Source: Candidatus Heimdallarchaeota archaeon B3_Heim (GTDB lineage Archaea > Asgardarchaeota > Heimdallarchaeia > Hodarchaeales > Hodarchaeaceae). Taken from it: a DNA stretch of 32,000 nt. The stretch covers positions 3,321 to 35,320 of the forward strand of contig NJBF01000039.1 in assembly GCA_003144275.1 (NCBI GenBank). The letters are read 5' to 3'. This document shows, piece after piece, positions 19,231 to 32,000 of the stretch (position 1 is the stretch's first letter; each line of letters begins with the position of its first letter). The translations under genes and the position numbers were made by a program. Under the pieces are notes generated by a model. The model saw nothing but the letters and a program-made list of their open reading frames with translations. It ran no database searches and was not told where the DNA came from.

Positions 19231-19267
19231 TTCCTAATCACCCTACTAGCATTTGAAGAGTTCCACA

Positions 19268-20605
19268 TTAAGGCCGATATGTTTCTTGTGCTACGATCGA
19301 GAGAACTTGAATAGAATAATAAAACGTGAGTAGGATGACTATTAGCATTATGAAGTATGCGACAATATTCCACTGTTTTAGCACACGATCATAGAAATCA
19401 CCCAATGGTAAAATTAAGATTAACGAAATCCAAGTGGCTCCGAAAAAGACTGCGATAAAATGAGTCTTGAGAGAAAAGTCCTGGAATAAGAATCCCGAAA
19501 ACTCTCCAACTAAACCCACTACCCCAATACTAAGGATTGCAAGCAGAAAAGTTATACAAACAGTATAGATTGATCCCCATGAAATACCTTTGACGAAGGA
19601 TTGATTTCTGATCCCCCTTTCTTCCGATGTTTTTATATCCCCTAAACGAAGGATTATTGGTCCTCCGCCAAAATAAATCCATAAAAAGTTAAAAATAGCC
19701 GTAATAAGAACTCTTGAAGTATCTAAGCGATAATTTACTTGATAACCCGTCTTTCTGTACACGAAAAATGTAGCTAGCCAGATTGGCATCATTAACAAGG
19801 ATGTCAGAAGAAAACCTGACATGATGCCAAACAAACCATCCAAAATAGGATCTGTTTCGATATTTAAGAAAAAATCACTTGTCGAATATCTGAAATACCA
19901 ATAAAAGTAAATCATTGTAACCAATATAAGAGATCCACCATAGTTCAGCAAATTCTGCCGGTTAAACCCACCAAAATTTTTATTCAGAGAACTTAAGGTC
20001 TGGTGATTCCTGTGTACAACTCCGAAAGAACGTGAATGTGAAATTGTACTTTTTATAGGAAAAGATCTTGATGTCCCATGTCTGATTATTGTAAGTGGAA
20101 TACTTGCAGGTTTTAATAATTGAGACAACTCTACTTGAAATCCTTCAAATGGTTTCTCAAGTAACAAAGAACGTTTCGTTTTCCTACCAAAATCAGTCGC
20201 TCCACAATGTACACAATATCCTGTATTCGGAGGATTTGGTTTCCAACAATGATTACAAATAACAGCTTGTGATCCTTCTTGAACGGAAGTTTGCAATCGA
20301 GCTCCACATAAATGACAAAATGAATGTCCTGTGGGGATTTCCTGTCGACATAAAGGACAATTTTGATTTTTGGCAATCACTGGTGATTCAGTGTCGAGAG
20401 ATTTCCCGCATCTGATACAAAAAATCGTTTTGGGAACTAACTCTTCACAATGTGGACATTTGATCTCACTAAATGAAGGTTGTTGAACCTTCTCCAAGGT
20501 AGAGCTCAATTTTTGCCCACAGGTAATACAAAATTCCGTTTTAGGGACGTTGTTATTACAATGAGGACAATTAATAAAAGTAATATCCGTATTATCTGAA
20601 TTCAT
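19268..20605 (-). CDS. Four zinc ribbons (double-zinc-ribbon repeats) fused to a polytopic membrane domain, possibly a catalytically dead M50-like protease fold
   Basis: Eight CxxC motifs (CPHC/CITC, CPHC/CIRC, CPLC/CHLC, CNHC/CVHC) in the first ~140 aa; about 6-7 hydrophobic segments after aa ~220. Confidence 0.75.
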   Translation of the reverse strand: MNSDNTDITFINCPHCNNNVPKTEFCITCGQKLSSTLEKVQQPSFSEIKCPHCEELVPKTIFCIRCGKSLDTESPVIAKNQNCPLCRQEIPTGHSFCHLCGARLQTSVQEGSQAVICNHCWKPNPPNTGYCVHCGATDFGRKTKRSLLLEKPFEGFQVELSQLLKPASIPLTIIRHGTSRSFPIKSTISHSRSFGVVHRNHQTLSSLNKNFGGFNRQNLLNYGGSLILVTMIYFYWYFRYSTSDFFLNIETDPILDGLFGIMSGFLLTSLLMMPIWLATFFVYRKTGYQVNYRLDTSRVLITAIFNFLWIYFGGGPIILRLGDIKTSEERGIRNQSFVKGISWGSIYTVCITFLLAILSIGVVGLVGEFSGFLFQDFSLKTHFIAVFFGATWISLILILPLGDFYDRVLKQWNIVAYFIMLIVILLTFYYSIQVLSIVAQETYRP

Positions 20606-20736
20606 TAGATCTAAATGTCCTGTTTCGATTATTAGTTGTTTTCATCTATTCATATACTTGTTTAAAAATGATGTTCTGTTAAAGCAACAACTATTCTTGT
20701 TTATTGCTGATTTCTCACAAAGTAAAAAGAATTTTC

Positions 20737-21189
20737 TTAGTTCCAAATGAAAGTGAATACTCCAAACAAGAAAATCATTAACTCGACGACGATTATTTGT
20801 TGTTTCCTATAGTAATTCTTAATGAAATTCACAGGATTTGATTCTTCGAGAATTTCTAATGGATCTAAATTGAGAAGTGACACTGAATAGTCGGAAAAAG
20901 GAGCAAATATATACACATTCCAATCAATCATATCACTCATGAGATGTATGAAACCACCAAGGAAAAACCAATAAAAATTTGATTTTAGGAGGAAGGAAAA
21001 AGAAGTAAGAAAAATCCATACCATTGGATAGTGGGGAAAATAAGTCCGATGGTTCTTTTTTTGAAGAATTCCTAAGAATATATCTGCATCTGGAAGAACA
21101 CAGCCTAGAATTAATAACATATTCGAGAACGAATCGATTTGAAGGATATTCACAAATATTATTCCGATTAAAAGATGGATATGAGGCAT
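20737..21189 (-). CDS. Membrane-bound metal-dependent hydrolase (YdjM-like)
   Basis: MPHIH, LPDADI, NHRTYFPHYP, IHLMSDMID pattern. ORF track starts at 21267; the ATG at 21189 fits the family N-terminus. Confidence 0.75.
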   Translation of the reverse strand: MPHIHLLIGIIFVNILQIDSFSNMLLILGCVLPDADIFLGILQKKNHRTYFPHYPMVWIFLTSFSFLLKSNFYWFFLGGFIHLMSDMIDWNVYIFAPFSDYSVSLLNLDPLEILEESNPVNFIKNYYRKQQIIVVELMIFLFGVFTFIWN

Positions 21190-21316
21190 CAAATTGCATA
21201 CCAGCTGGAAATCTATATACTGATGCAGAATTTTCGAGTTTACTATACGCATATAATTTAAAAACAAAATTCATTCTCTAATAAAATGGTCAAATACATT
21301 TTGGGATAGATGTGCT

Positions 21317-21700
21317 ATGCCATACCGTCAACCTTTAGAAAAGTTGCTTGAAGAAAAGAAAGTTCTTGGAGTGGTAATTTTTGACCCTTCTGGCAATGAT
21401 TGGTGGCATACAGGGTCATTCCCGCAAGCAAATGACAGACTTTTAGATGGATACTATTTAATTCACGAATGGGTAACATACCCAGCTTCTGCTGAAATAG
21501 CTGGAGTAAAATATCTGACATTACTTAATGCGTACCCAGATTACTGGCTTTTGACAAATATGCAAGGCCAAGGATCCTTAATTCTCCAAAAAGCTACTAA
21601 CGGCTTTTATTTTTTCTGTTATCTAGATGAATCCATTGATCCACCTGACATCCAGAAAGAAGTAAAAGTAATTGCCGAGCTTTTCGCACAAGGCGTCTAA
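21317..21700 (+). CDS. Profilin (Asgard type)
   Basis: 127 aa; VLGVVIFDPSGNDWWHT, EIAGVKYL, LTNMQGQGSLI, C-terminal helix IQKEVKVIAELF; N-terminus aligns without gaps to eukaryotic profilins as recalled (yeast [34 protein letters not shown]). Confidence 0.8.
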   Translation: MPYRQPLEKLLEEKKVLGVVIFDPSGNDWWHTGSFPQANDRLLDGYYLIHEWVTYPASAEIAGVKYLTLLNAYPDYWLLTNMQGQGSLILQKATNGFYFFCYLDESIDPPDIQKEVKVIAELFAQGV

Positions 21701-21710
21701 GGGATTTATA

Positions 21711-23135
21711 ATGACATCAGGAAACGATTATTCGAGTCTAAGCCATATTTTTCGAGCTTATGACGTACGAGGAGTATATAATAAAGAAATCACTGCTGCA
21801 GTCCATTATCGGATTGGTCTAGCCTTCGGAACATTCTTGCAGAGAAATCAAGGATTTCAGACCCAGGATCATTTTGTCTTTATTGCTTGGGATATTCGCC
21901 AAACAAGTTCACTATTAGCACAAGCTTTTGCTGCCGGAGTCATGTCTTCTGGAATACATATTGAGTATTCTGGGGAAGCTTTACAATTTGGTGCATGTAT
22001 GTTTTCAGCTTGGAAACGGAATGCATTTGCTACGGCATATATAACTGCTTCTCATCTTCCTCCTGAATGGAATGGGGTCAAATTTTATTATGGTAATGGA
22101 GTGGGTTTTTCTGAAGAAGACAACATGAAAATTCGAGACATTTTTATTGAAGGTGATTTTCTTCAACCATCATGGACAGGGGTAGGACAAATGACTCGCT
22201 TGAATCTCAAAAATGAGTATCGTGATTATTTAAGTACAAAGTTTACACTTAAAAGACCATTAAAAGTTGTTGTCGACTGTGGGAATGGTTCCTCATGTTT
22301 GTCAGCTCCTGAAGTCCTAAAATCTATCGGTCTTGAGGTAATTCCCTTATACTGTGAAGTCAATCCTGCTTTCCCCAATAGGCCTTCTGAACCCAATGAA
22401 CAAACTTTGACTGAGCTATCGAAAATTGTTATTGAAGAGAAAGCAGATTTTGGAGTGGGATTCGATGGGGATGGTGATCGTGCTGTTATTGCTGATAATA
22501 CAGGCCGTGTCTTACTCGCCGATATTACAGGTCTAATTCTGGCCAAATATATGCTCTCGATTTTTCCGAAGAAGAAAAGGGTACTAGCGAATGTAGAATG
22601 TTCTCTTGCATTAGAAAAATCACTCCCTGAATCAACAATTGTTGACCGTATTAAAGTAGGCCATACATTCCTAACTGCAGATGCACAGGATAAGAAAGAT
22701 ACATTAATTGGAATTGAGAGCTCTGGACATATGGTTTTTCCACATATATACCTATTTGATGATGCAATGATCATTCCTTTGATCTTAGCTGAAATGCTAT
22801 CAACGCAAGATACTAGTCTCTCTGAATTGGTTGATCAACTGCCCTTATTGTATAAACGTAGGGTAGCTGTCCCAGCACCAGATAATATCAAATTTAACGC
22901 TATAACAAGTTTGTTACAAGAGATTAAAGCATCCCATAATTCTGTGACTGACATCGATGGAATTGGTATTTCTTTTGGTGTTGAATCTTGGGTATTAATT
23001 CGGGCTAGTAATACAGGACCAAAAATTCGCATCACTATAGAGGCAGAATCAGCTAATCAGGCAGATGAGTTACTAGTTAAATATCAAAAGTTATTAGAAG
23101 ATAAGCTTCAAGAGATTACCTCTACAATGGAATGA
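21711..23135 (+). CDS. Phosphomannomutase/phosphoglucomutase (alpha-D-phosphohexomutase)
   Basis: IFRAYDVRG, ITASHLPPEWNGVKF (phosphoserine), GFDGDGDRA (metal loop), GIESSGH, LIRASNTGPKIRI. ATG 21711 chosen over 21672, which overlaps profilin. Confidence 0.95.
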   Translation: MTSGNDYSSLSHIFRAYDVRGVYNKEITAAVHYRIGLAFGTFLQRNQGFQTQDHFVFIAWDIRQTSSLLAQAFAAGVMSSGIHIEYSGEALQFGACMFSAWKRNAFATAYITASHLPPEWNGVKFYYGNGVGFSEEDNMKIRDIFIEGDFLQPSWTGVGQMTRLNLKNEYRDYLSTKFTLKRPLKVVVDCGNGSSCLSAPEVLKSIGLEVIPLYCEVNPAFPNRPSEPNEQTLTELSKIVIEEKADFGVGFDGDGDRAVIADNTGRVLLADITGLILAKYMLSIFPKKKRVLANVECSLALEKSLPESTIVDRIKVGHTFLTADAQDKKDTLIGIESSGHMVFPHIYLFDDAMIIPLILAEMLSTQDTSLSELVDQLPLLYKRRVAVPAPDNIKFNAITSLLQEIKASHNSVTDIDGIGISFGVESWVLIRASNTGPKIRITIEAESANQADELLVKYQKLLEDKLQEITSTME

Positions 23136-23136
23136 T

Positions 23137-23844
23137 GTGTTAGAAATGATTGATAAAATCGGTTTAATAGGTGGCACTGGTCCATTAGGACAAGGATTAG
23201 CTTTACGGTGGGGATTAGTAGGCGAACCAGTCTGTATGGGTTCAAGGCAGCAGGAAAAAGCGGACAAAATTGCTCTTGAAATAAATTCGAAGTTAAATAG
23301 TCAGATAATTCAACCTATGACAAATGAGGATTGTATTCAAGAAGCAGACATTATTCTCATCACTACTCCATTTAATTTCATGATTAAAACGATAGAACCA
23401 TTATTACCTCACTTAACGGTGGAAAAAATCCTTGTCGATGTCACTGTTCCTCTGAAACCGTTTGAAAAGGGAAAAATGGTTGACATTCTACCACCAATGG
23501 ACTTAAAAGCTCAAAGTGCCACGGAACTCCTACGAAAAGTTGTTCCTCCTAACATACCTGTAGTAGGTGCCTTTAAAACCCTATCAAATTCCACATTACG
23601 AGATATTAACAGATTACCAACCTTATATCAGGATGTTTTCATTTTTAGTAAAGATAAAGAAGCTAAAAATAGAGTGAAGGAGAAAGCCCTTAAAATTGAG
23701 CACCTCCGACCTGTTGACGCTGGAGGAACGCTTTCAGCAAGACATGTGGAAAGATTTACTGCCTTCCTCATTGGTCTCAATCGAAGATATAAAACACATG
23801 ATTCTGGAATTAAAGTTTCAGGACTACCTACACGAAAATGGTAA
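23137..23844 (+). CDS. npdG: NADPH-dependent F420 reductase (F420H2:NADP+ oxidoreductase)
   Basis: IGLIGGTGPLGQGLALRW, MGSRQQEKA, VDVTVPL, VVGAFKTLS, RPVDAG, ERFTAFLIGLNRRY. Alternative start ATG 23146. Confidence 0.88.
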   Translation: MLEMIDKIGLIGGTGPLGQGLALRWGLVGEPVCMGSRQQEKADKIALEINSKLNSQIIQPMTNEDCIQEADIILITTPFNFMIKTIEPLLPHLTVEKILVDVTVPLKPFEKGKMVDILPPMDLKAQSATELLRKVVPPNIPVVGAFKTLSNSTLRDINRLPTLYQDVFIFSKDKEAKNRVKEKALKIEHLRPVDAGGTLSARHVERFTAFLIGLNRRYKTHDSGIKVSGLPTRKW

Positions 23845-23848
23845 TTAT

Positions 23849-25474
23849 TTAGATGCTTGGTTTAAAAGTATCTATTATCTGTTTTTGTGATTTAGAGATA
23901 TTATAATGGTTGAGGATAAACTCGTCCAATTGAGTTATTTCCTCATTTCCCAAACATTTTTCTCTCTCTATCTTCATTTCTTCGATTTTTTGTTCCTCTA
24001 ATGCGGAAAATGGTAATTTAATGGGAAGTCGCTTCAAATAGTTGATTGCTATTTTAGGAAATATTTTCTTTACCGTTTTAAACTTATGGTTAAGATAAAA
24101 AGTCAATAACGAGGAGTTTAATATGATTTCTAAGTGTTTTAAATTGAAATGAGACCATTGTGGGTTGAAGGTAATTATATACACATCGCACACACAAAAA
24201 AGCCTGTTTGGATCATAAACTGCTATAAGCTCACGACCAATTCTTCGGAGGAGCAATTTAGGTGTCATATACATTGATTTATCTTTAAAAATTGATTTCC
24301 TGTTCGAATCGAAATCAATATATCTCTTATCTCCTACTATGGAAAATTTACTGATATTTCTCCCAGCTATCAATGGTATAGAATCCTTTGTAGAAGGTGT
24401 TTCGCTAGTTAAGGTTGACTTAAATCCTAACTCGATTCCACGTGTAATAGATGCAATATCCTTTAGAAATAGCGAATCTATTTCCATAATCTCAAGAATT
24501 TCAGTAATTTCTGTAGCCATATCAGGTACAATGTACCTAAACTTCTGATCCATAATCATACTTTGGTCATTCTTTTTAATCTGAGAAATTCCACTTTCAA
24601 CTGAATACCTACTGAATTCAATGATATTGGAAAGACTCTTCTCGGCTTCAGTTTTCTTATATCCCATTACAATGCATGTTTCAACAGATACTGAAGGAAA
24701 TACATTGTCATCCAACATTATGATTTTCTTGATGTAAATCTGATTGAGTAATAAATCCCTGAATGCTTGATATCGAAAGTTTGTAGTGAAGTTATTCGGA
24801 ATAAGGAAGATTAACGCTCCTCCTTCTCGTAATAGATGTATTGACCGTTCCACAAATAGAAGATAACTTTCTATTTCGGGATCAACACCTTCAAAAATTC
24901 TTCTATAGATATTTTTCTCTTCTGAAGTAAATGAAATCCCAAAGGGGGGATTTCCTATACAAATATCATATCCCTCTTTAGTATTAGGTAAGGGCCATTC
25001 ATAAAACCAATGAAACGCATTTTTAACCAAACTTATGTCTGGCTGAGTAATGTTAAGATCATCGAAGAAATAACGAGTTAATTTTTCTTCTGTATAATAA
25101 TTCTTCATGGTTTTAGGAGGTTTAATATACCCAATTAACGCATTACCAGTTTTAAACGAAATTTCAATATCCTGATTAGTCGCTAATTCCCTTTTTTTTG
25201 ACTCACATAAATTTATAGATTCATTATTTATATCTAAACCATGCAAAATTAGTTTAAAGTTTTTTAGATCACTTGCTCTGATGTTGTTCCGGTGTTTCAT
25301 AATTTCAAATAAAAATCTACCATCTCCAACTGAATTATCAAGGATGCTGATACTTCTAGAACCAAGTGGTTGGTTCAGAATCTTGTTAATAAAATCGAGA
25401 GAGAGATTGACCATTAATTTTACAATTGCTTGTGGAGTTGGGATCGCTCCTAGTGGTTCTTTTCCTTTATTCAC
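23849..25474 (-). CDS. N6-adenine DNA methyltransferase-like protein A (gamma class, Eco57I/TaqI-like with TaqI_C-type specificity domain)
   Basis: GAIPTP, motif I ILDNSVGDGRFL, GLDIN, motif IV DICIGNPPF (24941-24952), LFVERSIHLLREGG, FPSVSVETCI, C-terminal PKLLLRRI...LNSSLL. GTG start with GGAGGGGG upstream. Confidence 0.88.
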   Translation of the reverse strand: MNKGKEPLGAIPTPQAIVKLMVNLSLDFINKILNQPLGSRSISILDNSVGDGRFLFEIMKHRNNIRASDLKNFKLILHGLDINNESINLCESKKRELATNQDIEISFKTGNALIGYIKPPKTMKNYYTEEKLTRYFFDDLNITQPDISLVKNAFHWFYEWPLPNTKEGYDICIGNPPFGISFTSEEKNIYRRIFEGVDPEIESYLLFVERSIHLLREGGALIFLIPNNFTTNFRYQAFRDLLLNQIYIKKIIMLDDNVFPSVSVETCIVMGYKKTEAEKSLSNIIEFSRYSVESGISQIKKNDQSMIMDQKFRYIVPDMATEITEILEIMEIDSLFLKDIASITRGIELGFKSTLTSETPSTKDSIPLIAGRNISKFSIVGDKRYIDFDSNRKSIFKDKSMYMTPKLLLRRIGRELIAVYDPNRLFCVCDVYIITFNPQWSHFNLKHLEIILNSSLLTFYLNHKFKTVKKIFPKIAINYLKRLPIKLPFSALEEQKIEEMKIEREKCLGNEEITQLDEFILNHYNISKSQKQIIDTFKPSI

Positions 25475-25479
25475 CTTTC

Positions 25480-27222
25480 TTATTCCCCCTCCAAAATTAT
25501 CTGCTTTTCATTTTGAGATAATTCATAAAGATTGAAAACAATTTCGTCTATAATGGACCTAACATATTCCATCCTTGAATATTTTCCAAATATCCCTTCG
25601 ACGTAAGATTTATTGACTTTAATTCCTATTTGTTTTCCTAACCATGATAAGTCGTCTACATTTCTTGTTCGAAAAAACCTATCAATCTGCTTCATTAACT
25701 TAAAGGGATTACTTGTATGATTTTTCTGATTATATATTGACTGATTAACCATTTCATCTAGCAGTTGTTTTAGCTCCTTCCCTTCATTAAGATACAATTT
25801 GAAGATTTCTCCAATCACGAAGAATTGGTCTACGTTTGATTCCTTTTTTGCTGACAAACAAATATTGGGAAGCTGACTCTTTTCTACCATTTTCTTAATT
25901 TTACTACGGAAGTCAGAATTCGAATCACCATCCAAACGAGGAATTATTAGTTTATTTAGATATGGTTTATCTAAATCTTTGCTTGTTACAAATCGTTTAG
26001 TATATACTGCATTTTGTAACCACCAATTTATAAACTTAGATTGAAGTAAAGCACCATATGCATAAATATCATTAGACGAAGAATAAGGAGGAATTATGTT
26101 AATGACAGTTTCATGAGTAAGGTAGACACCTAAGGAATCAACCCAAATTGGAAGATCCAGTTGGAATTTTGGTTTGGTTTTATAAGCAATAATACGTTGT
26201 CCAATTATTTTAGGTTGTTTTAACCTTTTAAACTTAATTTCAGGAACAGCTTCATTTACATAATTACGTTCTGGAAATAAAAATCCGTGTGTAAGCGAAA
26301 CTTTTTCTATTAATGGAGTAGATACGTCTTTTACACGAAATCGACTACTTAAACCACGAAAAGCAGTCCATTCGATTCTTCTGTGATCTTTTAGGAGCTT
26401 TTCCATTAGTTTCTGCTCTGAGGGAGTGACACCCACTAAAAAATTATCGAAACGAATCGCGTTTTGAGTCTTTACGGTTGAAATGAAAGCTAGCTTTTCA
26501 TTCACAGGATCCCAGATCCCTGTTCGGAACTCTAAAGATGGAGAGATTTTTTGTAGTGTGAGGGCAACTTGCTCTTGCAATTGACCAGAAAATTGATTTG
26601 CTAAATCAAATACTTCTAAAAGACGAACCTGGGTTAGACATAATTGTCGAAATATTTTCCATTTATTAGAGTAAATAAAAGGTTTAGGTAAAATAAATGA
26701 AAGGATACCCCTGTCTTTCAAGAGATTAATTGACTTCAGTACGAAATAAAGAGCGGATTCTGACGGAATATTCTCTTGGACATCTTTAGGACGCAATTTT
26801 CTTATTTTATCCCACTCTTGTGGAGAATATTTCGCATGATGAGGAGGGTTAGATATGATTAAATCGTATTTTGTTCCTTGATTCTCTGTATCAAATTCAG
26901 TCAGAAAATTTTTGAGATGAAAAACAACAGAACATCTATCATCTTTAACAGAGTTAATTACTAATGATTTAGCTCTTGAGAGCGCAGAAGGGTCAATATC
27001 TAACGCATCGATATTGATAGAACAAAATTTATTCTTTAATATCTGAATAAGTGTTCTACAAAAAATTCCTTCTCCAGCTGATGGGTCTAACACTGAGAGA
27101 GTATCATTATCTCTTGGGTCATCAAGATAATAGACAATGTTTCCAATTATTGCCTGTACAATGTTTTCAGGTGTAAAATATTGCCCTTTTTCGCGCTGAG
27201 TACGTGACAAGCTGAGTCCCAA
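25480..27222 (-). CDS. N6-adenine DNA methyltransferase-like protein B (gamma class, atypical NPPH motif)
   Basis: REKGQYFTP, motif I VLDPSAGEGIF, ALDID, motif IV DLIISNPPH (26839-26850), LLKDRGILSFILP, C-terminal PKIIGQRI...IDEIVFNLYELS. TTG start (27222 or 27210). Confidence 0.85.
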   Translation of the reverse strand: MGLSLSRTQREKGQYFTPENIVQAIIGNIVYYLDDPRDNDTLSVLDPSAGEGIFCRTLIQILKNKFCSINIDALDIDPSALSRAKSLVINSVKDDRCSVVFHLKNFLTEFDTENQGTKYDLIISNPPHHAKYSPQEWDKIRKLRPKDVQENIPSESALYFVLKSINLLKDRGILSFILPKPFIYSNKWKIFRQLCLTQVRLLEVFDLANQFSGQLQEQVALTLQKISPSLEFRTGIWDPVNEKLAFISTVKTQNAIRFDNFLVGVTPSEQKLMEKLLKDHRRIEWTAFRGLSSRFRVKDVSTPLIEKVSLTHGFLFPERNYVNEAVPEIKFKRLKQPKIIGQRIIAYKTKPKFQLDLPIWVDSLGVYLTHETVINIIPPYSSSNDIYAYGALLQSKFINWWLQNAVYTKRFVTSKDLDKPYLNKLIIPRLDGDSNSDFRSKIKKMVEKSQLPNICLSAKKESNVDQFFVIGEIFKLYLNEGKELKQLLDEMVNQSIYNQKNHTSNPFKLMKQIDRFFRTRNVDDLSWLGKQIGIKVNKSYVEGIFGKYSRMEYVRSIIDEIVFNLYELSQNEKQIILEGE

Positions 27223-27237
27223 AAATCGTTTTTTTCA

Positions 27238-29196
27238 CTAAGAGCTGACATTCAACATATCTTTAATTTTCTTCGCAGTGAAAGTCTTACCAGTAAGTAC
27301 ATTACCACTCATTATAATAAGACGATGATTATTTTTGTTGATCATTGATACCAAATTTTTCACCTTCAAATCGTAATTATCTGATCTAGTCGATAGCTCA
27401 ACAACGTGACTCTTACTCGGAACATAGAGAGAAGATTCATACGTCCTAATTAATTTTTCATAACGCACAAAAATTGAGAGATCTGCATCGCTCTTGGTTA
27501 GAGATTCTTCTTCTTGACCTCTGGCGTCGAAATTTAATTTCAGAGCTTCCTTAGATACATTAATATGGACAAAAATCGGATTGAAAACTCTAAATTGCTT
27601 GATTAAATTCTCTCGATGATTTGGATGTGAGGGGGAATTAAAATTAGTTCCATCAAAAAATACGACATTGGATTTATTTCTACGTAGATGACAGGAAATA
27701 AGCCATATTGCGAGTCGATAAGTATGGGTACTCTCCCAAGTGGAATAATTTGGTTTATTCATACGATATAATTTTCGAATATGATCTGTTGATATTATAT
27801 TGATCTTCGGAATTTTTAACGCAGTACATAAGTTTACAACCATTTTAATTCGATTGAGAATTTCATACAACTCTTTTTTTGAATTAAGTGATGGTTTAAC
27901 CTCGACTTGCTCACGTAATAGGGTTAAACAAATTCCAATAAACTCTCGTTGTATAGCTTTTGTCTTATCTATGTTTAAGTAAGCAACAACATCATTTCCA
28001 TTGATCTTCAAATCTTTCAAATAAATTGGGCTTTGTGAGGCACTTCTCAGTTTTATATCCTTTAACAATGCTTCAATGGGATCAGCCTCATTCCCTAACA
28101 ACTTCCATGCTTTGATAAAATTAAGGTAATCTTCAAGGAATCTAGGATCGATTCTGAAAAGGAATTTCCTTAGTGCATAGTTTTTTGAAATTTCAGGAGC
28201 TAGAGTAGAATAAGGTAAAGGGACCGAATAAATTGTTAAAATGTGTATTATATCATCAATTTGCTTGTTTGGGAATTTGAGTCCTTTAAGGATACCAATA
28301 ATCAACTTCTTGTCTAATTTAGGGACAGCATGTGATAACTTATAATCAGTAGCTGATAATTGATGAATAAGAACAGAAAATCTGAGATTTACTGAAGAAT
28401 TGTTGGTAAGATTGTCTATAATACGAAAAGTAATTTCTAATCGTGATAAACCTAAACCTGATATGAGAGTATGCATGAATTCAGTATTAAATTGAGGGAT
28501 TAACTTAGCTAGTACCCCTGTAGTATGTAAGAAGTGCACAGCTTGTTGCCAATATCGCCCCGACATCAATTTCTGTAATTCAGTTCCAATTCGTTCCTTT
28601 GCAACTTGATCAAATACATCTAAATGTCTAGGAACCGCTGCAAGAGATGAATTCTCAACAGAATACCCTAATTCTGAAACAAATCGAAAGATTCTAATTA
28701 ATCGCAGCCCATCTTCCCCTAACCGAGCATCAGGATCACCTACCAACCGTAAAAGTTGATTATTGATATCAGAACGTCCATTGTAAGGATCTGTAAATTC
28801 CTCAGTTATAGGATCATATGCAATTGCATTTATTGTTAGATCACGTCGAGCAAGATCTTCCCCAATATCAGTTACAAACTGAACTTCGGAAGGACGACGC
28901 CCATCTTTATACACACCTTCGACCCGAAAAGTTGTAATCTCTATTGAAAGATTTTTAAAGAGAAGAGTAACTGTTCCATGTTGTATACCCGTCGGAATTA
29001 CCCTAAAATGAGTAAATAAATCCATAACTTCAGATGGAGAGGCGTCAGTTGCTATGTCCCAATCATTTGGTCGTGTTTCACCCCGCAAAAGATCACGAAT
29101 TGACCCACCAACGACAAAAGCCTTGAATCCAGAAGAAGAAAATTTGTGACAGATCTCAAGAATTTCCGAAGGAAAAAGATTTGGGGTTAATTCCAT
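27238..29196 (-). CDS. cca: Class II CCA tRNA nucleotidyltransferase fused to a C-terminal, circularly permuted P-loop kinase-like domain
   Basis: VVGGSIRDLL...DWDIATDA (DxD), EITTFR, DLARRDLTINAIAY, EDGLRLIRIFRF, AKERIGTELQKL. C-terminal ~190 aa: ISTDHIRK, VFFDGTN, FVHINV, SDAD, ending RLIIMSGNVLTGKT. GAGGT upstream of the ATG. CCA-adding versus CC- or A-adding activity is inferred. Confidence 0.88.
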   Translation of the reverse strand: MELTPNLFPSEILEICHKFSSSGFKAFVVGGSIRDLLRGETRPNDWDIATDASPSEVMDLFTHFRVIPTGIQHGTVTLLFKNLSIEITTFRVEGVYKDGRRPSEVQFVTDIGEDLARRDLTINAIAYDPITEEFTDPYNGRSDINNQLLRLVGDPDARLGEDGLRLIRIFRFVSELGYSVENSSLAAVPRHLDVFDQVAKERIGTELQKLMSGRYWQQAVHFLHTTGVLAKLIPQFNTEFMHTLISGLGLSRLEITFRIIDNLTNNSSVNLRFSVLIHQLSATDYKLSHAVPKLDKKLIIGILKGLKFPNKQIDDIIHILTIYSVPLPYSTLAPEISKNYALRKFLFRIDPRFLEDYLNFIKAWKLLGNEADPIEALLKDIKLRSASQSPIYLKDLKINGNDVVAYLNIDKTKAIQREFIGICLTLLREQVEVKPSLNSKKELYEILNRIKMVVNLCTALKIPKINIISTDHIRKLYRMNKPNYSTWESTHTYRLAIWLISCHLRRNKSNVVFFDGTNFNSPSHPNHRENLIKQFRVFNPIFVHINVSKEALKLNFDARGQEEESLTKSDADLSIFVRYEKLIRTYESSLYVPSKSHVVELSTRSDNYDLKVKNLVSMINKNNHRLIIMSGNVLTGKTFTAKKIKDMLNVSS

Positions 29197-29290
29197 GTTT
29201 CTACCTCTGTCTACTTTCGAATTGAGGAAAAGAGCTATTAAAACCTTTAATATCTCCTATGGATAAGCAATACTTTCTGAGAGATGATAT

Positions 29291-31888
29291 TTGCAACACC
29301 TATCTCAAAAACTAAAAGAGTTTTATGTATCACTTCTTCAAGGTGGGAGATACTTAGGTTGGTCTGATACAGATAACTTTGAGGTAGCTCTAAATTCACT
29401 CATTAAATTTCTCTCGGTATTTTATTACCAACCTTGGGATAAAATCACAGAAGAATCATTCTCTTCACTTGAAAAAGTAGAAAAATGTAAAATATTTTTC
29501 AAAATATGGATTCACTTATCTAATGGGTCTCCAGATAGAAATTATATTTCGGTTGTTGAAAAAACTAGTTATCATTTATCTCACCTTACCCCGCATGAGG
29601 AAAAATTACTACAGAGTATTCCAGAAGCAGATTGGGACCAAATGATCATATTTATGGGAAGATATCAATTTGTTTTGGTCGAAACATTCCAACAATCTGG
29701 GGGGAAAGACGAAGGAATAACCCCAGAATTTCTCTCTATATTTGCAGAAATGGTCACAAATGAATTTGAAAAAGATTTTTCTGTTTCACCCAAAGTTTCG
29801 AGTCGCAAGATAAAGGGAGTATACTACTCGCCGTGGAAAATCATCCGAGAGTTAACAAATAATCTTATAGCAAGAGATAAAGTTCAGGTGACGGTGTTAG
29901 ATCCAAGTTCTGGAACTGGTTCATTTCTTCTTTACGCAGCAGAAAGAATTTTCCAAAATCAATTGAAATCTTCATGTAAACACGCTGAAAACCCATCAAT
30001 GATTGTCAAGAATTTCATTTTTGGGGTAGATAAGGCAGGTCCAGGTATATTAGTAACCAAGCTTCGGTTGCTATTCTGGATGTTAAGTAAAAATCCTGAA
30101 TCAGAAATAGAGATCAATCCAGGGTTATTTTCGAATATTCGGAAAGGAAACTCGCTTTTTGGATTTATTAATGAGAAATTCAGTCCGTCTATTGAGATCT
30201 TGAGTTATTTTTCTCAAAAGATAGAGGAAAGTGAAGTAGAGTCATCAAAACGTGTTAAATTGACTAAAAATATGGATACAAATTGGGTACACTCTTGTAA
30301 CCAACTCAAATCAATTTTAATGAGTAAGAACTGTATAAATGGAGGAAATATTGACTCTCTAACGGAGCAATTAAATCGAGAGATTTCAAAACTGTTAGAT
30401 ATATCATACATACAATTTTTGTCTTTTTTAACGAATAAAACAGCTAAAGTAAAATCTTTTTACAATATTGACACAGAACAGCATAATTTTTTTCATTGGG
30501 GGTTGATTTTTCCCAATATTATTCTACAAGGAGGATTCGACGTATGTTTAGGAAACCCTCCTTATGGCCGTTCTATTCTGTCAGTAAAAGAGAAAAACAT
30601 CCTAAAAAAATCTTACAATTCATGCAAAGGATCTAATGCAAAAAAAGTAAGCTTGAATGCTGCAGGAGCTTTTATTGAACGTTCAATCAAACTCTTAAAG
30701 CCAGAAGGCCGTTTAGCATTCATTCTTCCATTTTCTGTTCTTAGGGTGGAAGAATTTGAAGGAATTCGGAATTACATTCTAGAAAGGACTGTGATTAACG
30801 AAATTCATGACGAATCTGCAGCTTTCCAAGATGTTACTTTAGAAATGTGTTCATTGATCTTAACTAAACATCAAAAAAGTGACTACTCGATATTTATTAA
30901 ACCCAGAAAAGGTTTGGAACCAGGATTACAAATAAGAAACTCTATTTTCATGAATTACAAGCGATTTATGATTTACTATGACACAAATTGGCAGAAGATT
31001 GTTAATGGTGGAAAATTCTCCCAAGTAATGGGAGATTATGGAGTAGATCACAGGATTGTCAAGAAAGACTTGAAACGAAATTACACCCCTTCCATAGGCT
31101 ATGTCGTTCCATTTCTTCATTCAGGAAAGTGCGTCACTCGCTATGCACTGAACCCAAATTATTTTCTTTGGTCAAAATCGACTCATAAGAATCCTAGATT
31201 TATCAACTATCTTGAGAAACCTAAACTTGTATGTACTGCAATTGGTAACGAGTTTCGGGTAGCGTACAAACCTAGGGGGATCGTACCAGGAACAAATGTC
31301 TCAATAATGGAAATTTCAAACCCCCATCATGATTTCTTTCCTCTAATGATTATACTCAATTCTTCTCTAATTAATTATTTATTAAAACGATATATATTGA
31401 ACTATTCTCATCTAACGGTCTATCTACACAAATATTATACACAATTAATACCAATAAAGTATCCATGGTCTTATGAAAAGGAATGGAGAATAATTGGGAC
31501 ATATATATCCTTATTAAATCAGATACAACAATTGAACATTGGACTCTCTTACCAAAAAGAGTTGAAATTTTTGGAAGAAATTACAGAGCACCTTGTTTAC
31601 CATTTATATCTTCCAGAAATATATATAGGTTCAAAGTTAACGTTAACATCTATACTTCAGGATTCCCTTCTTGAAATCCAATTTGAGGACTGTATTGAGG
31701 CACTCTTATCCCCAGCTAGCAATATTGAGGAGATTATAAGTGAAAAAAATTCTGATGTAATGAAAGCTGAAGCAAGAATACTAACTGTCATTAGTACATT
31801 GAAAACTGATTCAATTCTCAATATCCTATCTCAATCCAAGCAATTAAGAGAAAAATCGGGAATAACGAAAAAAAGAGATTTCGTCTAA
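29291..31888 (+). CDS. Large N6-adenine DNA methyltransferase-like protein C (Eco57I/type IIG-like MTase-TRD, no recognisable nuclease domain)
   Basis: RKIKGVYYSP, motif I VLDPSSGTGSFL, FGVDK, NIRKGNSL, FHWGLIFP...GGFDVCLGNPPY (30554-30565), FIERSIKLLKPEGRLAFILP, C-terminal PKLVC...ILNSSL. TTG start. Confidence 0.88.
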   Translation: MQHLSQKLKEFYVSLLQGGRYLGWSDTDNFEVALNSLIKFLSVFYYQPWDKITEESFSSLEKVEKCKIFFKIWIHLSNGSPDRNYISVVEKTSYHLSHLTPHEEKLLQSIPEADWDQMIIFMGRYQFVLVETFQQSGGKDEGITPEFLSIFAEMVTNEFEKDFSVSPKVSSRKIKGVYYSPWKIIRELTNNLIARDKVQVTVLDPSSGTGSFLLYAAERIFQNQLKSSCKHAENPSMIVKNFIFGVDKAGPGILVTKLRLLFWMLSKNPESEIEINPGLFSNIRKGNSLFGFINEKFSPSIEILSYFSQKIEESEVESSKRVKLTKNMDTNWVHSCNQLKSILMSKNCINGGNIDSLTEQLNREISKLLDISYIQFLSFLTNKTAKVKSFYNIDTEQHNFFHWGLIFPNIILQGGFDVCLGNPPYGRSILSVKEKNILKKSYNSCKGSNAKKVSLNAAGAFIERSIKLLKPEGRLAFILPFSVLRVEEFEGIRNYILERTVINEIHDESAAFQDVTLEMCSLILTKHQKSDYSIFIKPRKGLEPGLQIRNSIFMNYKRFMIYYDTNWQKIVNGGKFSQVMGDYGVDHRIVKKDLKRNYTPSIGYVVPFLHSGKCVTRYALNPNYFLWSKSTHKNPRFINYLEKPKLVCTAIGNEFRVAYKPRGIVPGTNVSIMEISNPHHDFFPLMIILNSSLINYLLKRYILNYSHLTVYLHKYYTQLIPIKYPWSYEKEWRIIGTYISLLNQIQQLNIGLSYQKELKFLEEITEHLVYHLYLPEIYIGSKLTLTSILQDSLLEIQFEDCIEALLSPASNIEEIISEKNSDVMKAEARILTVISTLKTDSILNILSQSKQLREKSGITKKRDFV

Positions 31889-32000
31889 ATTGTTGAACAC
31901 CACCATTAACCTTTAAAAAGAAAACTAAGAAATCTTAACCTTAGAAATCATCAATGGCCATAGCTGAAATAACAAACGATAAGGAATATGCCATGATTGA

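Follow-up and report, generated by a model that had tools for sequence, protein, structure and literature searches.

The window analyzed here, a 32,000-nucleotide stretch of the genome of Candidatus Heimdallarchaeota archaeon B3_Heim (contig NJBF01000039.1, positions 3,321 to 35,320; G000:C94:3321-35320 in our numbering), comes from the archaeal order Hodarchaeales and carries a compact block of four genes, in which a predicted class II CCA-adding enzyme with an additional kinase domain is surrounded by three predicted DNA adenine methyltransferases (MTases). The core of this block, with MTase C divergent from the CCA-kinase gene and MTase B directly behind it, is real and has been inherited vertically as a unit. 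We favor, with moderate confidence, an interpretation in which this vertically inherited block consists of orphan DNA adenine methylases of fixed specificity, expressed with or beside an essential CCA-kinase gene.

The CCA-kinase fusion gene (27238-29196, minus strand, 652 aa) is followed on the same strand by MTase B (25480-27222, 580 aa) and MTase A (23849-25474, 541 aa, with a GTG start), while MTase C (29291-31888, plus strand, 865 aa) is read in the opposite direction; all four were delineated from their open reading frames (ORFs) and Pfam matches. Gaps of 15 nt between the CCA-kinase gene and MTase B, and of 5 nt between MTase B and MTase A, leave no room for either methylase to have its own promoter, and co-transcription of the CCA-kinase gene with B (and A) appears likely. 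The 94-nt divergent spacer between the CCA-kinase gene and MTase C (29197-29290) contains AT-rich, TATA-like elements at about 29235-29243 and 29246-29253, and is presumably a bidirectional promoter region. A Shine-Dalgarno-like stretch with a GGAGG, GGAGGGGG (25485-25492, minus strand), falls within the final part of the MTase B gene and precedes the MTase A GTG by 11-18 nt; it may act as the ribosome-binding signal of MTase A. An initial annotation of this DNA, made from its letters alone, had described the same four reading frames with their coordinates, strands, and spacings, as well as a Shine-Dalgarno signal ahead of MTase A, and all of these features were re-read as given.

The first two thirds of the fusion protein resemble the solved bacterial class II enzymes throughout. 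Residues 1-245 (28462-29196, minus strand) form the nucleotidyltransferase head and neck, assigned from motifs, Pfam, and matches to solved enzymes, and carry GGSIRD, DWD, RRD, EDGLR, and a full flexible loop (TTFRVEGVYKDGRRP). These class II motifs and the loop are invariant in 15 orthologues. The head and neck match solved CCA-adding enzymes at 2e-50, and two Pfam models score above their cut-offs, namely the PolyA_pol head (PF01743, 118.7 bits) and the RNA-binding domain (PF12627, 33.1 bits). The NCBIfam model NF009814 reaches 254.9 bits against a 290-bit cut-off, a shortfall that arises because only the first 236 of its 396 positions align. Residues 246-455 (27832-28461, minus strand) supply the helical body and tail of the enzyme, as seen from a tRNA_NucTran2_2 match (2.6e-5) and helices modeled with high pLDDT. 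The model of the full-length fusion (pLDDT 86.8) superposes on the Geobacillus enzyme 1miv over 390 residues with a Z score of 31.1, and the alignment extends to fusion residue 458. The fusion thus has the complete head-neck-body-tail layout of the Geobacillus (1MIV) and Planococcus (6IBP) class II enzymes, together with their motifs A-E and flexible loop, and is predicted to be a class II CCA-adding enzyme that may add CCA, CC, or only A. Compared with its bacterial counterparts, it adds a 200-residue permuted kinase domain and has methylase genes as neighbors.

The fusion is probably an essential housekeeping CCA-adding, or at least A-adding, enzyme, because no class I CCA enzyme (TIGR03671) was found in its own genome, which is 94% complete. 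The initial annotation had proposed a check for a separate class I enzyme, and this is its outcome. Class I was likewise not found in 18 of the 21 other genomes of the genus, and the same model does match enzymes in sister families. These results agree with a preprint in which the Hodarchaeales are reported to have class II (CCA2) enzymes only, some with two paralogues, in a lineage without class I enzymes (10.64898/2026.05.29.728689). According to the same source, the Hodarchaeales cca gene is of bacterial origin and one Hodarchaeum enzyme, its paralogue unspecified, adds the complete CCA in vitro; neither a kinase domain nor methylase neighbors are mentioned (10.64898/2026.05.29.728689). In our own data, the genome encodes one further class II enzyme, a paralogue of 387 aa, on another contig (G000:C43:43926-44606; L038:1405-2568). 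Its head is 33% identical to that of the fusion and its loop is degenerate, reading YGQ-PP where the fusion has DGRRP, and it may be a CC-adding or otherwise sub-functionalized enzyme.

The remainder of the fusion is a predicted kinase domain in an unusual order. Residues 456-620 (27337-27831, minus strand) correspond by fold and profile matches to a P-loop kinase core of the AAA_33/PNK/PSTK type that lacks the first strand and the P-loop, with STDHIRK, FDGTNF, and HPxHR as its invariant motifs. The displaced strand, Walker A motif, and helix occupy residues 621-652 plus the stop (27238-27336, minus strand) at the extreme C-terminus, with the Walker A motif, GNVLTGKT, encoded at 27283-27306 and invariant in 15 orthologues; the strand, Walker A, and helix (R-LIIMSGNVLTGKT) stand at the C-terminal end in all orthologues. 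The Pfam AAA_33 model scores 18 bits on the window fusion against a 27-bit cut-off, with the first ~18 profile positions unmatched. The best structural matches include PSTK (Z 8.7), Kti12 (8.5), 6PF2K, CthPnk (7.7), and T4 PNK (6.6), together with the RNA-repair kinases Trl1 and Pnkp1, and in every match the alignment starts only past the target's own P-loop, at about its residue 25-40. When the fusion is aligned pairwise with a standalone AAA_33 kinase of 199 aa, its core matches residues 55-197 of that protein and its C-terminal 23 residues match residues 29-51. This order implies a circular permutation, and the domain is therefore best described, from its sequence, as a predicted circular permutant of an AAA_33/PNK-type kinase. 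All kinase motifs (Walker A, catalytic Asp, and a DxTN-type Walker B) are present and invariant, in permuted order.

The fold and motifs of residues 456-652 resemble those of standalone AAA_33 kinases, PSTK, KTI12, and the T4 and Clostridium PNKs, in all of which the first strand, P-loop, and helix precede the domain, whereas in the fusion they come last. A domain-profile search of 1.8 billion representative sequences returned a handful of fused forms and then standalone AAA_33 proteins at E values of 1e-7 to 1e-3. The two best standalone relatives (P0088 and P0089) lie on short contigs, on which no CCA gene or methylase was found nearby. A tRNA is a plausible substrate for the kinase. A complex prediction for MTase B with the kinase domain (residues 455-652) returned a score of 0.00, gave no answer, and carries no weight either way.

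All three methylases match the Eco57I/N6_Mtase models of Pfam, with TaqI_C also matched in A and C, and the matches of A and C exceed the cut-offs. MTase A is a predicted TaqI/Eco57I-type N6-adenine DNA methyltransferase; its motif I reads ILDNSVGDGRF and its motif IV NPPF, and it has a TaqI_C domain for target recognition. MTase B comprises an Eco57I/N6_Mtase catalytic domain (residues 1-235), a TaqI_C-like recognition domain (residues 236-470), and a variable helical tail; the resemblance of its C-terminal half to TaqI_C is supported by both language-model features and structure (TM 0.6-0.73). Its motif I is VLDPSAGEGIF, and its motif IV, at residues 124-127 (26842-26853), is NPPH, which recurs in 13 of 14 orthologues with NPPY in the remaining one (L025). 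A histidine at the base-stacking position of motif IV is unusual among N6-adenine methylases. Against the sequences of solved structures, the MTase B profile matches M.BseCI (7e-23) and CamA (8e-17).

MTase C is larger, and consists of a helical N-domain (residues 1-170), a PglX/MmeI-like Eco57I methylase with a long insertion, a TaqI_C recognition domain (residues 541-760), and a helical tail, with motif I VLDPSSGTGSF and motif IV NPPY at residues 422-425. Its profile matches BsaXI, M.TaqI, and the PglX of BREX among sequences of solved structures, and its model (pLDDT 65.6) has as best folds PglX/BrxX (Foldseek E about 1e-11), CamA, BsaXI, and HsdM. The N-terminal 165 residues are confidently modeled as all-helical, and this excludes a nuclease fold of the PD-(D/E)xK type there. 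The recognition domain is poorly modeled (pLDDT <50 for residues 558-725), and the structure therefore gives no conclusion on target recognition. Alignment of B with C by hhalign gives 99.2% probability across the methylase and recognition domains, and the two proteins are homologous over that extent.

Motif I is conserved in all three proteins, the NPP(Y/F/H) motif is conserved in the orthologues of B and C, and with their TaqI-like recognition domains the three have the features of gamma-class N6-adenine methyltransferases, B with the NPPH variant; DNA is accordingly the likely substrate. The recognition domains are about as conserved as the catalytic cores. In MTase C, mean pairwise identity is 69% in the core and 64% in the recognition domain (33% invariant columns), and in MTase B the figures are 46% and 48% (17% invariant columns), as against 62% in the CCA head domain. 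Such conservation points to fixed-target methylases under purifying selection, rather than to restriction-modification partners engaged in an arms race. Together with conservation across the lineage and the lack of any cognate nuclease in the window or in relatives' flanks, this makes A, B, and C predicted orphan DNA adenine methyltransferases, of which B and C fit a fixed specificity. The nearest described parallels are the CamA, M.BseCI, and M.TaqI types, in which, as in A and B, an Eco57I/N6_Mtase domain stands at the N-terminus and a TaqI-like recognition domain comes after it; the CamA of Clostridioides difficile, like the genes described here, lacks a cognate nuclease and is conserved within its lineage. 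The present case differs in that three such genes stand around a probably essential tRNA-processing gene, with predicted common transcription signals, and in that MTase B has NPPH in place of NPPY. In the literature on Asgard orphan methylases, we found nothing specific to a CCA-kinase/methylase block.

Evidence that the block is a unit comes from its relatives. A full-length fusion is encoded in 16 of the 21 other genomes of the genus, and we fetched ~18 kb around 14 of these loci (L022-L035), giving 15 loci with the window. In 14/14, MTase C lies divergently upstream of the fusion and MTase B directly downstream. Protein identity to the window across these loci ranges from 42% to 70% for the fusion, 32% to 88% for B, and 39% to 75% for C, and the divergent spacer, which is conserved within clades, measures between 94 and 180 nt in each of the 15 loci. 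The flanks vary by clade, with at least three configurations on the left and at least four on the right, and there are 0 breaks inside the trio. The major clades are the same in the maximum-likelihood trees of all three proteins. The initial annotation had entertained the possibility that relatives carry the fusion without neighboring methylases; this was not seen wherever the contig allowed a view.

MTase A behaves differently and is an optional third gene of the operon. Its orthologues occur only in L022, L023, L024, L032, L033, and G005; elsewhere it is absent or replaced, and in two loci B directly abuts an F420-type oxidoreductase gene. In the L025-L030 clade its position is taken by a 303-aa ORF without a Pfam match (for example L026:5065-5976, minus strand), whose atlas features resemble the minimal nucleotidyltransferases NTP_transf_5/DUF2204; the ORF beside it (L026:4134-4994, plus strand) is weakly NTP_transf_5-like. 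One genome (G018) contains two differing CCA-kinase/MTase B junctions, on C190 (L040) and C59 (L024), which show 49%/37% and 62%/56% identity to the window; strains or species binned together could account for this, as could a real duplication. In seven assemblies (G000, G005, G008, G014, G019, G021, and G018:C190) the contig ends in or at the block, which may be due to strain heterogeneity at the locus or merely to fragmented metagenome assemblies.

Comparison with the closest relative (G013, L022) revealed a tract of allelic replacement. By sliding nucleotide identity, the two sequences are 64-84% identical from 27241 to ~31230 (tract 27241-31230), compared with 87-98% in the left flank (19250-27240) and 95% past the tract. 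It takes in the CCA-kinase gene in full and runs across the spacer into MTase C, where it includes the N-terminal two thirds and ends before the recognition domain. The trees agree, with the window and L022 being tight sisters for B and not for the fusion. The tract is a single event that shows gene flow at the locus, and could hint at co-adaptation of the fusion with the N-terminal part of MTase C.

The kinase-fused form is represented by 28 database clusters, all labeled Hodarchaeales or Heimdallarchaeota. The MTase B family comprises 46 clusters with the same labels, after which the scores drop from 280 to 59 bits, in a search limited by word-based candidate selection. The nearest unfused class II enzyme, from a sister family of the class (L041, G026), has 523 aa and no kinase domain, and no methylase lies within about 8 kb of its gene. 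A 222-aa kinase gene (AAA_17/18/33; L041:8618-9286, within the pair at L041:6961-9286) divergently adjoins it, and its product has a normal N-terminal Walker A motif; we considered this kinase as a precursor of the fused domain and rejected it, as it is of the AAA_17/18 type and has no detectable similarity to the fusion kinase. A C-like methylase of 911 aa, 40-44% identical in the core and recognition domain, is found in a sister family of the same order, where it is solitary among housekeeping genes and no fusion is present. Within the genus itself, five genomes lack the fusion, B, and C together. This joint absence was rejected as independent evidence, as three adjacent genes drop out together. 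In one of the five (G005) the contig ends inside the MTase A orthologue, at a conserved flank, and in three others (G010, G017, and G006) no CCA enzyme of either class was found, which makes assembly gaps the likelier cause.

The block stands in a lineage and a region that are themselves rich in such genes. The window's own genome has 16 Eco57I-family (PF07669) matches in 3.95 Mb, and genomes of the genus that carry the block, like those of the order's sister family, have 13-26 each, compared with 1-9 in other families of the class. The encoding ORFs span 550-1600 aa, which suggests that solitary methylases occur alongside possible type IIG enzymes. Four genomes (G007, G009, G011, and G012) have two or three further Eco57I-type genes 13-25 kb from the block. 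By our own arithmetic, about 0.007 Eco57I triples within 8 kb would be expected by chance from 16 genes in 3.95 Mb, so that three of the 16 copies falling inside 8 kb by chance is unlikely. Moreover, the genus-wide orthology of B and C rules out a recent accumulation.

The composition of the block invites comparison with several known systems, and it departs from each. Scans of the four proteins with Pfam, NCBIfam, and PADLOC gave no nuclease domain, none was found in the window either, and the adjoining or fused endonuclease expected of type II restriction-modification is not there. The initial annotation had seen no restriction endonuclease, and our search of the window, the four proteins, and the relatives' flanks bears this out. 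The window contig stops at position 32000, 112 nt past MTase C, and sequence beyond that gene can therefore be read from relatives only. Past MTase C these have a gene for a PLP-dependent enzyme, for a cobalamin adenosyltransferase, for a hydrolase, or for CheB/CheR, and no nuclease was found directly past it in their loci, so that the cognate endonuclease which the initial annotation had envisaged just outside the window gives way to housekeeping genes.

MTase C does share with PglX/BrxX of BREX and with the type IIL/IIG enzymes of the MmeI family a helical N-domain, an Eco57I methylase with a long insertion, and a recognition domain. However, PglX proteins are ~1200 aa long, compared with 865 aa for MTase C, which has no PglZ, BrxC, or BrxL gene nearby and no nuclease fold in its N-domain. 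On the BREX-1 PglX profile it scores 59.7 bits against a 500-bit cut-off. PglZ (PF08665) had no match in the genome and none was found among the block proteins in the PADLOC and NCBIfam scans, and the type 1 BREX genes (PglZ, BrxC, BrxA/B, and BrxL) were absent from the window and the relatives' flanks. The remark in the initial annotation that no BREX system is visible therefore stands. The MADS comparison ended similarly, with a best MAD2 score of 58.9 bits against a 720-bit cut-off, partial alignments, and no partner mad genes seen. Overall, the PADLOC and NCBIfam scans gave generic type II methylase matches only, the PglX and MAD2 matches being partial; the scan of defense systems that the initial annotation had suggested thus recognizes the methylases, far below the BREX and MADS cut-offs. 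Finally, like Pnkp/Hen1 RNA repair, the block combines in one cluster a predicted PNK-type P-loop kinase, an RNA end-modifying nucleotidyl-transfer enzyme, and methyltransferases. Yet the nucleotidyltransferase of the block is a CCA-adding enzyme where Pnkp has a ligase adenylyltransferase, and Hen1 is a 2'-O-ribose methylase, whereas the block methylases are of the N6-adenine DNA type. Of the kinase, phosphatase, ligase, and Hen1 set that makes up this repair system, the phosphatase, ligase, and Hen1 domains were found neither in the four proteins nor in their neighbors.

These observations enabled us to propose a model for the block. At its center would be the housekeeping CCA enzyme of the lineage, of bacterial class II type, with its C-terminal, circularly permuted kinase domain. 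MTase C, solitary and PglX/MmeI-like, would use the short divergent promoter region in common with the CCA-kinase gene, and the lineage-specific, BseCI/CamA-like MTase B would come next in the transcription unit, with the TaqI-like MTase A after it in some species. The methylases would be part of the lineage-wide Eco57I-type expansion. In this model, the link between cca and the methylases is most likely transcriptional and historical, consisting of constitutive co-expression from the promoter of an essential gene, in an arrangement that would have been frozen since the common ancestor, and a common biochemical pathway would be improbable. Of the three options put forward in the initial annotation, this corresponds to an orphan-methyltransferase cluster at a housekeeping promoter, which fits best given the lack of promoter room for B and A, the divergent spacer that MTase C has in common with the CCA-kinase gene in all 15 loci, and the behavior of the methylases as vertically inherited, fixed-specificity enzymes. 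That the block has no functional coupling is something we infer, and a functional link may yet exist. Several observations weigh against a merely transcriptional association. The linkage is tighter than a frozen accident requires, surviving at least three left and at least four right flank configurations with no internal break; a single recombination tract holds the CCA-kinase gene and the N-terminal two thirds of C; the kinase fusion and MTase B are both found only in the Hodarchaeales; the nearest unfused class II enzyme, in the sister family, is without methylase neighbors; and MTase B has NPPH as its motif IV, where NPPY/F is usual.

Such observations could be accommodated if the genes formed a functional tRNA or RNA-end module, in which the CCA enzyme rebuilds 3' ends, the kinase acts on a tRNA end, and B above all (or C) modifies the same RNA or is co-regulated, in loose parallel to Pnkp/Hen1. 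In addition to the strict adjacency, the restriction of the fusion and B to the lineage, the uncommon NPPH motif, and the methylase-free unfused relative, the start of B 15 nt past the cca stop is in keeping with this proposal, as are the kinase matches, which include the tRNA-dependent PSTK and Kti12 and the RNA-repair enzymes CthPnk, T4 PNK, Trl1, and Pnkp1. We nevertheless regard it as unlikely, since all relatives that could be detected for A, B, and C are DNA methyltransferases in which a TaqI-type domain recognizes DNA, the C-like methylase of the sister family is solitary in the absence of a fusion, the block has no ligase, phosphatase, or Hen1-type 2'-O-methylase, and kinase Z scores of ~8 fall in the range of a generic common fold. 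The more specific proposal that the trio is a functional module born in the Hodarchaeales, in which B, with its NPPH motif, and perhaps C work with the fusion on tRNA or nucleic-acid ends, or in which DNA methylation is coupled to tRNA maturation, seems decidedly doubtful.

A further alternative is an accident of genomic location. If a horizontally gained class II cca gene had landed in a methylase-rich, recombination-prone region, the adjacency would be history only. The Eco57I-type genes that G007, G009, G011, and G012 have at up to about 25 kb from the block, the variable third operon position (MTase A, the 303-aa nucleotidyltransferase-like ORF, or nothing), the recombination mosaic at the locus, and the reported bacterial origin of the cca gene (10.64898/2026.05.29.728689) are all compatible with this explanation. 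We consider it improbable, however, because B and C are single-copy orthologues with trees congruent with that of the fusion, are under strong purifying selection, and form with it a trio that has outlived several flank rearrangements. The hotspot proposed in the initial annotation hence survives as background to the block, in view of the 13-26 genes per genome, the copies 13-25 kb away, and the variable third position, and fails for B and C. This explanation overlaps with the one we prefer, and differs only in denying selected co-expression. We consider it very unlikely that the block is a defense locus, that is, the modification half of a restriction-modification, BREX-like, or MADS-like immunity with its effector elsewhere, or a CCA-kinase that counters tRNA-damaging toxins. 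The PglX-like fold of MTase C, the weak MAD2 and PglX profile matches, the allelic replacement at the locus, the many assemblies that break in or beside the block, and the wealth of Eco57I-type genes in the lineage could each be read in its favor. On the other side, the scores fall far under the cut-offs (59.7 against 500 and 58.9 against 720 bits), PglZ was not found in the genome and no nuclease in the window or beside the block in relatives, the recognition domains are conserved and not diversified, inheritance is vertical with congruent trees, and the neighborhood is one of core housekeeping genes without mobile-element genes. The defense or anti-toxin role raised in the initial annotation accordingly gains no positive support, with no nuclease, PglZ, ligase, or phosphatase and generic methylase matches only.

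Among archaea, the Hodarchaeales are often regarded as the group most closely related to eukaryotes. In this lineage the archaeal CCA-adding enzyme has been replaced by a bacterial-type one. What is new here is that the replacement enzyme appears to bear a permuted kinase domain, that its gene is locked into a conserved, predicted transcription unit with lineage-specific, solitary DNA adenine methylases, and that the lineage has an unusually large set of Eco57I-type methylases, at 13-26 per genome. If the linkage goes no further than transcription, the block is a neat case of orphan methylases that were domesticated behind an essential gene, and it also points to extensive m6A epigenetics in the group. 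If the linkage is instead functional, it would represent a new type of module for the quality control of tRNA ends or nucleic acids.

The remainder of the window has ordinary chromosomal, core housekeeping functions. It encodes an amidohydrolase, ABC transporters, an aminotransferase, a PAS response regulator, oxidoreductases, a profilin-like protein, and a phosphoglucomutase, and neither mobile-element nor defense genes were found in it, nor were tRNA genes or Rfam families found in the window. The public sequencing runs listed were three DNA runs from marine sediment (6-7% of sampled words each), with no RNA run among them. At the very end of the window (31955-32000), an ORF starting MAIAEITNDKEY opens 66 nt past the MTase C stop and runs off the contig; at the equivalent of position 31955, the closest relative has ~1.1 kb with short ORFs only, followed by the PLP-enzyme gene.

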